A stretch of 64,000 nucleotides of DNA from Candidatus Latescibacterota bacterium (GCA_965208835.1 OZ242358.1:1888001-1952000), one strand, 5' to 3'; positions 10,068 through 15,922 are shown, counted from the stretch's first letter. Program-made: numbers and translations. The notes: generated from the letters alone by a model not told the origin.

Positions 10068-11036
10068 TCACTTCCAGACAAGAACGACGCCCATCGTCTC
10101 GCCCAGGCGCGTATACAACAGGTCGAAAGCCTCTGCCGCATCCTGGAAGGGAAATCGGTGGGAGATCATCTCTTCTGCGCGGATCTTTCTTTGGGCAAGA
10201 AGCTGCAGGGCGCGGTCGGAACCTGAAGTGCGTTTGCCGCCGTCCGAATACCCGCCAACAATCCGCCGGCCCTGGATCTTTCCGGAGTCGAGCGGCAGGG
10301 GCTCGTCCTCATAAAGGCCGATAACCTGGATCAGGCCCCTTCGTTTCACCATATCCTGCGCCTGTGCGAACGCTGCCGCCCCCGCGCGCCCGCCCACCGC
10401 CTCCACCACGATTTCCACGCCCCCGCCGCCCGTCAGGCTCTTGACCGCCCTGACGGGATCTTCACGCGACGCATCCACCACGTGGTCCGCCCCCAGACGT
10501 CCGGCCAGTTCGCAACGGAGGGGCAGCGCGTCGACCGCGATCACCCGGGGATCCACTTCCGCGTTCAGCGTCTGCATGCAGATGGAGCCGACGAGGCCCT
10601 GACCCAGAATGGCCACCGTGTCTTCCTTGCGGGCCTCGATTTCCCGCATCCAGAGAACGGAACTGGTACTCAGCGGCCAGAACGTCGCGGCTTCCGAGGA
10701 GACCGCGTCCGGAAGATGCACAACCGGGGCCCGGTGGGGTGAGTCCACGACTTCGACGGCCACGTACTCCGCGTGCGGCGCAAGAGCCGCCACACGGTCG
10801 CCGATGGAGAAGCCGTCCACGCGGACGCCGACCTCGACAACGTCTCCCACGAACGAGTACCCCATGGCTTGATGGTCGATGGCTTCGGGACGGATGTAAC
10901 GCCGCCAGATCTCGGAACCGCGGCTGATCAGACTGCACTCCGCCCGGATCAGCACTTCCGTGGGCAAGACTTCAGGTACGGAGACATCCTCGATGACGAT
11001 ATTGTACTCGCCTTCCGGCTTTGCGACCCGTTTCAT
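10068..11036 (-). CDS. MDR-family (zinc-binding ADH-like) dehydrogenase lacking canonical Zn ligands
   Basis: GroES-like N-domain (SLISRGSE, MGYSFVG in place of GHE), ILGQGLVG Rossmann motif. Confidence 0.85.
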   Translation of the reverse strand: MKRVAKPEGEYNIVIEDVSVPEVLPTEVLIRAECSLISRGSEIWRRYIRPEAIDHQAMGYSFVGDVVEVGVRVDGFSIGDRVAALAPHAEYVAVEVVDSPHRAPVVHLPDAVSSEAATFWPLSTSSVLWMREIEARKEDTVAILGQGLVGSICMQTLNAEVDPRVIAVDALPLRCELAGRLGADHVVDASREDPVRAVKSLTGGGGVEIVVEAVGGRAGAAAFAQAQDMVKRRGLIQVIGLYEDEPLPLDSGKIQGRRIVGGYSDGGKRTSGSDRALQLLAQRKIRAEEMISHRFPFQDAAEAFDLLYTRLGETMGVVLVWK

Positions 11037-11148
11037 GATGGGGTTCCCTGATTTGGAGTAGTGGCGACTTGAGGCTCGGACATATCGGATAATGAGGATC
11101 GGAGCCGCCCAACCTGTGCTCTGCAGCCGGACGCAACGGAAGTACCGC

Positions 11149-11886
11149 TCAGTTAATCCGCGCGAGGTCCTGGATGTCGCGGCGAAATACCCATGTGCCC
11201 TCTCTTACATAGTGGATCGCGAATGCAAGCCGGGGCCTTCCCCTGGACCGGTTCGCGTATGAGCCGTGAATGGTTCTGCCGGTAAAGAAGACGCCCGATC
11301 CTCGCGGAACCGTAAGGAAAGTGAGTTCATCGCGGCTGACGCCGGCGACTTCGTGCGAGTGCATGGTTTCGGTCCACTTTCTGCCGTCGGGCGCCCGCAT
11401 GGCGTATTCTTTCACCCAGGAGGCATGTTCGCTGCCGTCTTGCGGGGGTCGGGTATTCCGGAGGGGGGCCAGGTGGCTGCCGGCGGCGACGCAAAGACCG
11501 CCGTTGTCCACGTCGGTATCGCTGAGTGCGAGCCAGCACGCCATAAGCGTGCCCGGTTCGTTCCGGATATAATGAGCGTCCTGGTGAAGCGCGATGCCGG
11601 CGCCGCCGCGCGGCGCCTTCGCCATGTACATGGTCTGGACGATCATTGGAGGTCCGTCCAGCAGTTGGGACGCGATGCCGGAGACACGGGGATGCGACGC
11701 CAGGTAACGCCACTGAGGGTCCGCGGTGTGCCTGCGCAGGCCGAGTTCAAGGACTTCCGGAGCCACCGTTTCCGCCTGCGCTTCCAGGAAGGTGTTGATT
11801 TCAGGCGGCGTCAGCAGGTCTGGAACCTGAACGAAACCGTCCATGCGGTACGCGGCCAATTGCTCCTTTGTCAGGAAGGGTCCCAT
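11149..11886 (-). CDS. PhyH family Fe/2OG dioxygenase
   Basis: LHQD, DNGGLCVAAGSH, TIHGSYANRS; start reassigned to ATG 11886. Confidence 0.88.
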   Translation of the reverse strand: MGPFLTKEQLAAYRMDGFVQVPDLLTPPEINTFLEAQAETVAPEVLELGLRRHTADPQWRYLASHPRVSGIASQLLDGPPMIVQTMYMAKAPRGGAGIALHQDAHYIRNEPGTLMACWLALSDTDVDNGGLCVAAGSHLAPLRNTRPPQDGSEHASWVKEYAMRAPDGRKWTETMHSHEVAGVSRDELTFLTVPRGSGVFFTGRTIHGSYANRSRGRPRLAFAIHYVREGTWVFRRDIQDLARIN

Positions 11887-11897
11887 CGTGGCGCAGG

Positions 11898-12842
11898 TCA
11901 GGTGAGGTCGAACGGGTTGGACCAGGCTTTTGTACCGTCCACTCCGATGACTTCGAATCGGACCCACCGCGCGCCCGGCCGCAGCGTAAAGGTGGCGCTC
12001 GTGAAGGGTTTTCCGGATCCTCTGTATTCGGTTCCGAAAGTATCGCAAATCGCCAGGACACACAGGGATTCGGAGCATTCAAGGGTGGCTTCGACCGGTT
12101 GTTTCTCTCCTTCGTTTCTCTGAAGGGTGATGTTTCGAATCTCGGTGCCGGTACTCGAGTAGCTCGCGCCCCGTTCCAGCGCATCGAGAATGGCCCCCGG
12201 AGACCGTTCCTTCACGCGTGCCATGGTCCAACCGCCGTACGTGTCGCGGTTATCCGATTCGAGGGCGTGGGAGTCGTCGTTGGCCAGGGCGGGATACAAC
12301 CTGTTTTCCAGGTCCATCCAGTCGTCCCAGTGAACGCCGGATTCCCCCCGGCCCGCGCATCGGCACGTTGTGTTGAATACCTCCACGCCGGCGAATCCCG
12401 TGAGCGGCGCGGTGTCTCTCAGGATATTGACCGAACTCCAGTACGGGTGGGCCAGCCACGTGCTGCCTCCCTGGTCCCGGACAGCGTCGATCACGTGCTG
12501 AGGCGGCATGCGCTCCGAGTCGATGTCTTCGTGGACGTTCAGGCAGAGAAAATGGTGTTTCTGTCCGCCGAACGGATTGTCCGGGTGCAGTTCGGCGCCC
12601 TGAATGAGTACAAAGTCGTCCGGACGAGCCACGGAATCGATTCGGGTGATCCTGTAGTGGTCCGAGAGACAGAGAAAGTCGTACCCCTGGCCGACGTACC
12701 CGTCCAGGCGTTCCTGGGGCGACGCTCTGCCGTCGGAGTTCGTCGTGTGGGAGTGGAGGTTGCCTTTCAGCCAGACGTAACCGTCGTCGGCATCCAGGCT
12801 GAATGGATTCACGAGGTCGTGCCGCGGCGCGTTTTCAGCCAT
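11898..12842 (-). CDS. PHP-domain (CehA/McbA-like) metallohydrolase
   Basis: KGNLHSHTTNSDG, LSDH, AHPYWS, NDDSH, AWSNP motifs. Confidence 0.88.
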   Translation of the reverse strand: MAENAPRHDLVNPFSLDADDGYVWLKGNLHSHTTNSDGRASPQERLDGYVGQGYDFLCLSDHYRITRIDSVARPDDFVLIQGAELHPDNPFGGQKHHFLCLNVHEDIDSERMPPQHVIDAVRDQGGSTWLAHPYWSSVNILRDTAPLTGFAGVEVFNTTCRCAGRGESGVHWDDWMDLENRLYPALANDDSHALESDNRDTYGGWTMARVKERSPGAILDALERGASYSSTGTEIRNITLQRNEGEKQPVEATLECSESLCVLAICDTFGTEYRGSGKPFTSATFTLRPGARWVRFEVIGVDGTKAWSNPFDLT

Positions 12843-15271: not shown

Positions 15272-15279
15272 GGCGGCGC

Positions 15280-15837
15280 TCAGGGGCCGAATGCCCGCAG
15301 CACGTCGGGCAAGGGTTTGGGGATGAGGGCGGCGCCGAGGAAATTTTCTCCGGTCTCGACGCTCGCGCGACCCACGGACAGGGCCTCGGTCACGGAAGCG
15401 ACGTCGCCAAGAATAAGTGAGCAGACCACCCGGTTGTGTACAGTAAGTACGTTATAAACCTGGACGTCGGCCGCCTTCACCATTCTGTCATTGGCGGTGA
15501 CGTGAGCGCCGTAACCTCTTGTTTCGATCAGACCCAGGGCGCCGGACGGTGTCCGCCGCTCCGTAGCGATTGCATTCGAAACGTATTCCCGGCAGGCGGG
15601 TTCGGGGTGCGTCATCGGCGCCGCAACCACGCGGTCCACCACCTCTCTGGCCGCTCGTTCGCCGCTCTTGAGCGCCGTTTCAACCCTGCTGATGGATCCA
15701 CCGAGAAAAACGGTGGTGAATCCGCCGATGGACTCCCAGCCCAGGAGGTCCACGCCAGCGGCTTTACCGGCGGCGTCCGACGCGAGGATAATCCCGGCGA
15801 CGCCTTCGACTTCGATCATTCCGATCGCGGCTGACAT
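15280..15837 (-). CDS. BMC shell protein with two tandem BMC domains, 185 aa
   Basis: AIGMIEVEG...DAAGKAAGV and ALGLIETRG...DRMVKAADV. Confidence 0.92.
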   Translation of the reverse strand: MSAAIGMIEVEGVAGIILASDAAGKAAGVDLLGWESIGGFTTVFLGGSISRVETALKSGERAAREVVDRVVAAPMTHPEPACREYVSNAIATERRTPSGALGLIETRGYGAHVTANDRMVKAADVQVYNVLTVHNRVVCSLILGDVASVTEALSVGRASVETGENFLGAALIPKPLPDVLRAFGP

Positions 15838-15893
15838 GCCCCGGTCCAGGTGTCTTGATATCGCACGGTACGGATCCGATAATTCAATCCGAC

Positions 15894-15922
15894 ATAATAG
15901 ATGCCGGTCGGAACAAAGTCAA
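15894..15922 (-). promoter_or_regulatory. Sigma-70-type promoter of the BMC operon
   Basis: Minus strand TTGACT-17 nt-TATTAT, about 57 bp upstream of ATG 15837. Confidence 0.65.

Follow-up and report, generated by a model that had tools for sequence, protein, structure and literature searches.

A detached member of the MUF2 microcompartment type in Candidatus Latescibacterota, with paired two- and four-domain shell genes and a candidate signature aldolase

We analysed a 64,000-nucleotide stretch of a Candidatus Latescibacterota genome (GCA_965208835.1, OZ242358.1:1888001-1952000; hereafter the window), in which six open reading frames (ORFs) run on the minus strand from 15837 to 10068. The first three encode a shell protein with two bacterial microcompartment (BMC) domains (BMC2), a shell protein with four such domains (BMC4) and an N-terminally extended aldolase of the dihydrodipicolinate synthase (DHDPS) family; the remaining three encode a PHP-fold hydrolase, a PhyH-family dioxygenase and an MDR-superfamily dehydrogenase. 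An initial annotation, made from the sequence alone, proposed these genes as a new BMC type. That proposal is not supported; the locus is a rearranged, detached member of MUF2, a type already described in the 2021 BMC catalog (Sutter et al., PMC8217296). Its main interest lies in the strictly paired two-domain and four-domain shell genes, which probably form a single asymmetric tile, and in an aldolase carrying a candidate targeting domain that it shares with another protein of such loci.

Scanning species-representative genomes with a BMC4 profile gave 77 loci, 70 of which have a full-length four-domain gene (of the other seven, four are truncated or broken copies and three are distant BMC loci). 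A BMC2 homolog lies directly upstream on the same strand in all 70, with gaps of tens of bases, and the N-extended aldolase lies directly downstream of BMC4 in 65. We call these three genes the trio. Fourteen of the loci (L001-L014) make up the clade of the window, leaving 56 outside it. In these 56 main loci, an acylating aldehyde dehydrogenase (AldDh; PRK15398-type, 649 bits against a cut-off of 403), a phosphotransacylase (PTAC) and the pentamer protein BMC-P are each found in 53, and BMC-H in 55. The three without AldDh, PTAC and BMC-P have just 0.3-1.5 kb of sequence 5' of BMC2, the contig or stretch ending there. Other frequent members are unk149, encoded directly upstream of the two-domain gene (55/56), a ThiO-like FAD oxidase (DAO; 55/56), a second DHDPS-like protein (47/56), an FAH-family hydrolase (36/56) and rhaM (20/56). 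Main loci often carry a further tandem BMC protein of 185-187 aa.

This gene content matches what the catalog passages say of MUF2: 13 loci, mainly from Gemmatimonadetes with Handelsmanbacteria and Armatimonadetes, with AldDh and PTAC encoded at the main locus, a BMC-P triplet, double and quadruple BMC-H-domain fusions, and a pfam00701 class I aldolase whose N-terminal domain also occurs on a protein with six conserved Cys and a C-terminal encapsulation peptide (PMC8217296). The window has the quadruple linear fusion and the pfam00701 aldolase with an N-terminal domain common to a Cys-rich protein, and its trio is orthologous to that of the MUF2 loci, at 47-91% BMC4 identity. AldDh with PTAC, the BMC-P triplet and the Cys-rich protein itself do not occur within its 64 kb. 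The hosts are also alike; the record titles of the nearest loci name Gemmatimonadota or Candidatus Latescibacterota and that of L034 names Handelsmanbacteria, with Latescibacterota extending the host range listed in those passages. The phylum labels of the metagenome-assembled genomes are inconsistent, as the records of L001-L013 are split between the titles Gemmatimonadota and Candidatus Latescibacterota, and that of L020 (56% BMC4 identity) bears the title Planctomycetota. A full-text literature search found MUF2 named only in the catalog and its preprint. In the catalog tree file, no entries of 381-386 aa were found, and the 'blurple' entries seen there are proteins of 89-190 aa.

The window and its 14 relatives differ from the main loci in having no AldDh, PTAC, BMC-P triplet, BMC-H or Cys-rich protein nearby; PHP hydrolase, PhyH and MDR genes are found instead. 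As the initial annotation had stated, the window contains no pentamer, acylating aldehyde dehydrogenase or PduL gene: PF03319, PF00171 and PF06130 were not found among the 54 ORFs scanned with Pfam across the 64 kb, and tblastn of the window with 16 families of MUF2 loci, each represented by up to 12 members, gave no match, apart from BMC-H queries falling inside BMC2 and BMC4 and the N-terminal domain of the aldolase. All the main-locus families counted above are likewise missing from the 14 window-clade loci. The only metabolosome functions encoded with the shell genes here are thus a candidate signature enzyme (the aldolase) and the MDR dehydrogenase, with AldDh and PTAC not among them. In a midpoint-rooted tree built on concatenated BMC2 and BMC4 sequences, L001-L014 group with the window in a single clade (SH-aLRT 98) that falls among the main-locus forms, and a single relocation is therefore enough to explain the detached arrangement. 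The alternative offered by the initial annotation, that the locus is a satellite of a main BMC cluster elsewhere, appears to fit this cross-locus comparison. All six genes have dN/dS values of 0.07-0.24 against three clade relatives, which indicates purifying selection and therefore that the detached cassette is in use.

BMC2 (15280..15837, minus strand; 185 aa) consists of two non-permuted PF00936 domains, T1 and T2 (Pfam E 8.4e-32), and BMC4 (14111..15271, minus strand; 386 aa), which starts 8 bp past the BMC2 stop, of four, Q1-Q4 (E 1e-76). A protein search returned at least 120 clusters of BMC4 homologs (366-424 aa, 51-91% identity, 92-100% query coverage); those listed with a named source come from Gemmatimonadota and Latescibacterota. 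BMC2 has weak scores against the CcmO and PduT models, and all its NCBIfam scores are under cut-off. Within the window, mutual identity among the six domains is just 27-46%. In a tree of 96 domains from 16 species together with six BMC-H proteins, T1, T2, Q1, Q3 and Q4 each form a single clade (support 100, 99, 89, 97 and 99, respectively). Since five of the six positions form clades of their own and mutual identity is this low, the six domain positions are old, distinct and individually maintained. The Asp and Lys of a D-x-x-x-K motif are invariant in all six domains (D21/K25 and D117/K121 in BMC2); we take this to be the edge motif for side-by-side packing of tiling BMC-H tiles. At the presumed pore loop of T2 (BMC2 residues 134-139, window 15421-15438), Cys139 is invariant and His134 nearly so, and the linker between Q1 and Q2 holds an invariant M-P-H motif (BMC4 residues 90-92, window 14996-15004).

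We modelled BMC2 and BMC4 as a complex, using alignments of 31 rows per chain. The prediction reached ipSAE values of 0.73, 0.75 and 0.79 (median 0.75), compared with 0.00 for the best of three controls; in a benchmark, 116 of 157 solved complexes came up to that mark, as did 2 of 215 mismatched pairs. The runs agreed on at least 88% of contacts, with a partner pLDDT of at least 88. More telling than the score is the contact list. On the BMC4 side, the interface comprises 25 residues of Q1 and 23 of Q4, with one residue of Q2 and none of Q3. Q4 meets T1 on its sheet side through an N-terminal strand-helix region, and T2 uses the equivalent region to meet the sheet side of Q1. In the model, these contacts follow the head-to-tail rule that a closed ring T1-T2-Q1-Q2-Q3-Q4 needs. 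Most likely, BMC2 and BMC4 assemble 1:1 into a single pseudohexameric tile in which all six positions differ in sequence. Judging by the pore-loop positions, T2 would supply the pore of such a tile with an H-N-R loop and a nearby invariant Cys; an Arg of Q3 that is invariant and a Tyr of Q4 that is nearly so would lie there too.

In current descriptions, BMC shells have three kinds of building block, namely hexamers, pseudohexameric trimers and pentamers, and tandem BMC proteins form trimers (PMC8217296). The proposed tile resembles BMC-T proteins (PduT, CcmO) in placing fused BMC domains at neighbouring positions of a hexagonal tile, as the two PF00936 domains of BMC2 would be. However, BMC-T tiles consist of three identical chains with three-fold symmetry, while the tile proposed here would consist of two different chains (4+2) and have no symmetry. 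We found no published account of a 2+4=6 tile in a full-text literature search or in the catalog passages, and these passages do not state that the double and quadruple genes always adjoin or could make one tile.

The aldolase (nDHDPS; 12921..14093, minus strand; 390 aa, with PF00701 at residues 75-362, E 8.9e-56) comprises an N-terminal domain of ~50 aa (~13944..14093), a variable linker, the catalytic domain and, at the C-terminus, a conserved tail that contains Cys. No other gene of the trio is as well conserved (67-92% identity across 28 loci). K233 (in GTKDSS), Y206, GSTGE at 116-120, several residues of the N-terminal domain and two Cys of the C-terminal tail are invariant in the 28 sequences; we assume for K233, Y206 and GSTGE the roles they have in the DHDPS/NAL family, with K233 presumably the Schiff-base Lys and Y206 the catalytic Tyr. 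Its closest solved relatives are E. coli YagE (2v8z/3n2x, 1.6e-36) and then the archaeal KD(P)G aldolase 4uxd (3.9e-34). The protein falls below every NCBIfam equivalog cut-off (dapA 144 vs 206, NAL 165 vs 281, nanA 131 vs 382 and KDG aldolase 126 vs 390 bits), DapA and NanA included, and hence represents a distinct subfamily. An aldehyde-releasing role seems reasonable, because the Schiff-base Lys motif is invariant and the best solved relative, YagE, is a keto-deoxy-sugar-acid aldolase. The proposal that the aldolase is an aldehyde-generating BMC enzyme thus gains from its link to the shell genes in 65 of 70 loci, its N-terminal domain and its invariant Lys, and stands apart from the claim of a new BMC type to which it was first attached. 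YagE/YjhH and the archaeal KDG aldolases share the conserved Lys, Tyr and GSTGE positions but, unlike the enzyme described here, have no N-terminal targeting domain, Cys-containing C-terminal tail or link to shell genes.

Several features of the surroundings bear on the substrate. Two dehydratases are encoded in the window, a galactonate dehydratase (4715-5839; 404 bits, the cut-off being 311) and another of the enolase superfamily (7823-8935), with a short-chain dehydrogenase/reductase (SDR) between the two (5955-6983). In L014, a heparinase II/III and alginate-lyase gene lies within the co-oriented run of the trio, and the FAH protein of MUF2 loci has the 2,4-didehydro-3-deoxy-L-rhamnonate hydrolase model as its best match. 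This genomic context points to 2-keto-3-deoxy acids. The reaction that we propose for the aldolase would split a 4-hydroxy-2-oxo (2-keto-3-deoxy) acid to yield pyruvate plus an aldehyde, for which lactaldehyde, glycolaldehyde and glyceraldehyde are candidates. The L-KDF aldolase of Watanabe 2020 is said to belong to the DHDPS/NAL family. Non-phosphorylative routes are described that split L-2-keto-3-deoxyfuconate (L-KDF) into pyruvate and L-lactaldehyde, and keto-deoxy-pentonates into pyruvate and toxic glycolaldehyde (PMC11199699; PMC6336799). In the passages concerned, Schiff-base enzymes are cited among such aldolases, and it is the L-2-keto-3-deoxypentonate (L-KDP) dehydratase, not the aldolases, that is placed in the DHDPS/NAL superfamily (PMC11199699; PMC6336799).

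Two known systems offer partial parallels, as far as the catalog passages describe them. The MUF2 AldDh is nearest to that of PVM, and similar substrates are suggested for the two (PMC8217296); PVM and PVM-like fucose/rhamnose BMCs further resemble MUF2 through the rhaM and FAH genes of the latter and the proposed lactaldehyde-releasing aldolase step. However, PVM loci use a class II pfam00596 aldolase on phosphorylated sugars, while the aldolase here is of class I (pfam00701) and would putatively act on non-phosphorylated keto-deoxy acids. SPU BMCs, with a DeoC class I aldolase as signature enzyme, provide a precedent for a Schiff-base aldolase making an aldehyde within a metabolosome, although that aldolase belongs to pfam01791, its substrate is phosphorylated and the shell proteins are different.

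The N-terminal domain of the aldolase recurs at the start of unk149: the N-termini of unk149 proteins align with aldolase residues 1-50 at 25-38% identity, with T11, T34, P35 and D39 invariant. Used as queries, they match the window only at 14090..13944, that is, at the aldolase start. The domain is modelled as a beta-alpha-beta-alpha-beta fold (pLDDT 81). It probably tethers the aldolase to the compartment, since it occurs on two proteins flanking the tile genes, one of which ends in what the catalog passages name as an encapsulation peptide, and since it is kept in the detached window clade. The unk149 protein itself (~150 aa) consists of this shared domain, a middle part rich in Cys (C-x-H-P-x-R-x-C-G-C ... 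C-x-x-C ... C-x-G-C) and a C-terminal helix of amphipathic character. It has no Pfam or NCBIfam match and is encoded directly 5' of the two-domain gene in L015-L073 (for example L018:9548-9994); it is possibly a metal or Fe-S adaptor of the MUF2 shell.

On balance, we find it fairly probable that all these elements belong to one picture: a detached piece of a MUF2-type metabolosome of Gemmatimonadota and Latescibacterota, with a 1:1 BMC2:BMC4 tile, a tethered aldolase and lineage-specific downstream enzymes. The trio would be the conserved core of this system, the N-terminal domain common to the aldolase and the unk149 of full loci would anchor the aldolase to the compartment, and an aldehyde-handling core (acylating AldDh, PTAC, BMC-H and BMC-P), directly 5' of the trio in most relatives, would be encoded elsewhere in the genome studied here. 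In the window clade, the trio would have moved once to a new site and there gained the PHP hydrolase, PhyH and MDR genes as lineage-specific neighbours outside the BMC type. A more far-reaching version is one we hold tentatively, with doubt a little the stronger. It makes BMC2 and BMC4 an obligate 1:1 heterodimer and thereby a fully asymmetric tile, a fourth type of BMC building block with six distinct edges, a unique pore and a dock or portal for the aldolase, in a cassette that has moved off its core and become wired to O2-dependent and hydrolytic enzymes.

Several observations weigh against the picture of a detached MUF2 piece with a joint tile. Q2 requires two changes on the domain tree, and a six-domain single-chain fusion was not seen among the 120 homologs listed. 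The score of the tile may mirror its likeness to solved BMC hexamers and trimers, the modelled assembly being the BMC2 and BMC4 pair only. In five of the 70 loci, among them one that lies at a contig end, the tile genes stand without the N-extended aldolase, and so the tile is not strictly dependent on the enzyme; in four main loci of this kind (L015, L033, L049 and L072), the FAD oxidase gene directly follows BMC2 and BMC4. AldDh, PTAC, BMC-P, a separate BMC-H and unk149 are absent both from the 64-kb window and from the up to 10 kb around the trio in the 14 clade relatives. For the N-terminal domain, there was no Pfam match at E <= 10 and no PDB fold match at E <= 0.001. The substrate is a guess, given that the aldolase lies under all equivalog cut-offs. 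Furthermore, the ThiO-like FAD oxidase and the second DHDPS-like protein of the main loci point equally to 2-oxo acids derived from amino acids; the PhyH hydroxylase of the window could have an analogous role in supplying 4-hydroxy-2-oxo acids.

The alternative that survives best, though we consider it unlikely, is that there is no joint tile. BMC2 would then be an ordinary trimerising BMC-T and BMC4 would assemble with itself, for example as three chains whose twelve domains make two linked or stacked pseudohexamers stapling tiles together. Tandem BMC proteins are known to trimerise, at least as the catalog passages have it; an additional tandem BMC protein is common in main loci, none of the 120 homologs listed is a six-domain fusion, and the complex model may simply echo general BMC packing learned from solved structures. 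However, the two genes adjoin, tens of bases apart, in every one of the 70 loci, and a symmetric BMC2 homotrimer has no need of six positions that are conserved singly and divergent mutually. In addition, the modelled contacts are confined, but for one residue of Q2, to the first and last BMC4 domains and orientated so as to continue the ring, and the linkers between the BMC4 domains, by our reading of the domain boundaries, are only ~11-13 residues long.

A second alternative, which we think distinctly improbable, accepts the tile and supposes that the core has been lost from the window lineage, so that the tile persists as an open sheet, tube or scaffold concentrating the aldolase, with no closed shell. 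The absence of pentamer and BMC-H genes from the 64 kb and the 14 related loci agrees with this, as do continued purifying selection on the trio and the retention of the N-terminal domain in the clade. On the other hand, the scan covered 64 kb of the genome, and all six D-x-x-x-K motifs are intact, fitting normal tiling with other shell proteins. Moreover, unk149, one candidate adaptor, which shares the N-terminal domain, is absent from the neighbourhood.

The three downstream enzymes are best understood as neighbours of one lineage. The PHP-fold metallohydrolase (11898..12842, minus strand; 314 aa) has no Pfam match, Pfam PHP included, but is assigned to the CehA/McbA family by NCBIfam NF038032 (89.5 bits against a cut-off of 80). 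Its model (pLDDT 84), a PHP barrel with a C-terminal beta domain, has 14 PDB matches at E <= 0.001, led by the PHP phosphoesterases 3e38 (E 2e-12) and 2anu (E 1.2e-9); H30, H32, D37, H62, H86, H132 and H192 are invariant. The family comprises 1046 relatives at E <= 0.001, of which the listed ones are 64-88% identical and, where named, come from Planctomycetota, Chloroflexota, Phycisphaeraceae and Latescibacterota. As it is widespread in phyla without records among the trio loci, the hydrolase appears to be a widely distributed enzyme rather than a BMC accessory. The PhyH-family Fe(II)/2-oxoglutarate dioxygenase (11149..11886, minus strand; PF05721 E 1e-25, 91.7 bits against a gathering score of 22) most likely starts at an internal ATG at 11886, giving 245 aa, since the longest ORF, which begins at 12078, would run 180 bp into the gene upstream of it. 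Its translation contains an HQD...H motif, presumably the metal triad. PhyH homologs follow the PHP gene only in L001-L013 (82-95% identity) and L014 (69%). The MDR-superfamily dehydrogenase (10068..11036, minus strand; 322 aa) matches PF00107 (1.7e-16) and, weakly, PF08240, its best NCBIfam matches being far under their cut-offs.

The presence of all three genes 3' of the trio is restricted to L001-L013, where BMC4 identity is 81-91%, and to L014 (61%), where extra genes intervene. The initial annotation counted the hydrolase and the dioxygenase as part of the BMC type, an idea that does not survive this distribution; they and the MDR gene are syntenic with the shell genes in just 14 of the 70 loci, all of one clade, so that three of the four enzymes originally joined to the shell are not syntenic with it elsewhere. 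None of the three shows the N-terminal domain, the unk149 queries matching within the window only at the aldolase.

The least probable alternative is that the six genes are nevertheless a new, self-contained BMC type, in which the PHP hydrolase and the O2-dependent PhyH enzyme would prepare the substrate, the aldolase would turn it into an aldehyde and the MDR dehydrogenase would handle that aldehyde, all without AldDh, PTAC or pentamer. The genes are co-oriented with short gaps behind one partly conserved promoter-like block, purifying selection acts on all six, and the arrangement is kept in 14 loci down to 61% BMC4 identity, with the L014 run adding further hydrolases and a polysaccharide lyase. 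Core genes occur within 10 kb in none of these 14 loci. Window-clade genomes were also not recognised among the best 120 of 4882 matches to the PTAC of L015, which is a weak pointer at most, as the same comparison recovered only 3 of 15 large main-locus contigs and its silence weighs little. Nevertheless, we do not favour this alternative, as the trio is orthologous to that of an already catalogued type and stands in an AldDh/PTAC/BMC-P locus in 53 of the 56 other loci, the detached form is a single derived clade, and the downstream enzymes include a family that, with relatives in several phyla among those listed, is not specific to BMCs and carry no N-terminal domain.

The remaining features concern the arrangement of the locus. 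The description of six co-oriented genes with gaps of 8-112 bp is borne out by the ORF coordinates, the gaps being 8, 17, 78, 11 and 112 bp in order. The promoter candidate noted earlier, a sigma-70-like TTGACT-17-TATTAT on the minus strand (15894..15922), is indeed present 57 bp 5' of BMC2 and agrees with the consensus at 10 of 12 positions. The consensus match by itself is weak, a scan of 6.6 kb having given four promoter-like sites where shuffled sequence would lead one to expect 1.6. Among ten aligned upstream regions of the window clade, the -35 element TTGAC is kept in seven, reads TTGGC in two and is absent in one, and the -10 box is TATTAT in three, TATAAT in one and TATTTT in two. A membrane protein gene ends 10-40 bp before the -35 box in L001, L005, L006 and L009; the window (15838-16410) and L013 have ~450 bp extra between this 806-aa gene and the promoter-like block. 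This extra stretch has no Rfam match and holds only an ORF of 84 aa without homologs (15939-16193), which we treated as non-coding given that it has no Pfam match and a homolog in none of the loci. Across 9800-16600, Rfam gave three matches, all far under their gathering scores.

Upstream of the shell genes, also on the minus strand, are genes for an 806-aa multi-pass membrane protein without assigned family (16411-18831), an 1820-aa FtsX/M28 protein (19214-24676), a DUF6785/DUF6784 protein (23845-25851) and an ABC ATPase (26582-27370). The 806-aa protein is 88-98% identical in L001-L013 and 82% in L014, compared with 81-91% and 61% for the shell proteins. On the other side, DapF (8947-9936) follows the MDR gene in 14 of 14 clade loci; we rejected it as a part of the system, as its score of 220.7 bits (cut-off 114.65) is that of a genuine DapF, and disregarded its dN/dS of 2.7 against L010 as an alignment artefact. 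The 64 kb contain four PhyH-family genes (6836-7597, 11149-11886, 34451-35722 and 35822-36859), and a heparinase II/III-like gene of 892 aa (36875-39553) is found beside two of them. Two further genes of the window are unrelated to the shell locus: one, at 39570-40829 on the minus strand, encodes a LarC-type nickel insertion protein (PF01969, E 6e-145); the other, at 49494-50675 on the plus strand, encodes a BpsA-like branched-chain polyamine synthase whose N-terminus carries a helix-turn-helix. In 53 of the 56 main loci, a gene for a ~105-aa HNH endonuclease follows the second DHDPS-like gene on the opposite strand, ~4.4 kb 3' of the BMC4 start. For a metabolic locus, so constant a companion is odd.

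That MUF2 has quadruple fusions and a pfam00701 aldolase was already known from the catalog passages (PMC8217296); the 2+4=6 arithmetic is what our literature search did not find. If true, a heterodimeric 4+2 tile occurring in nature would lack internal symmetry, and each of its edges and its pore could be tuned separately. One such tile could then take up a defined position within a shell or offer cargo a defined contact. Shell engineers seek this kind of control through designed fusions. For MUF2, the comparison provides a candidate signature aldolase and a candidate targeting domain across 70 species-level loci, and the window clade offers a natural experiment in which the tile-enzyme cassette has been parted from AldDh and PTAC.

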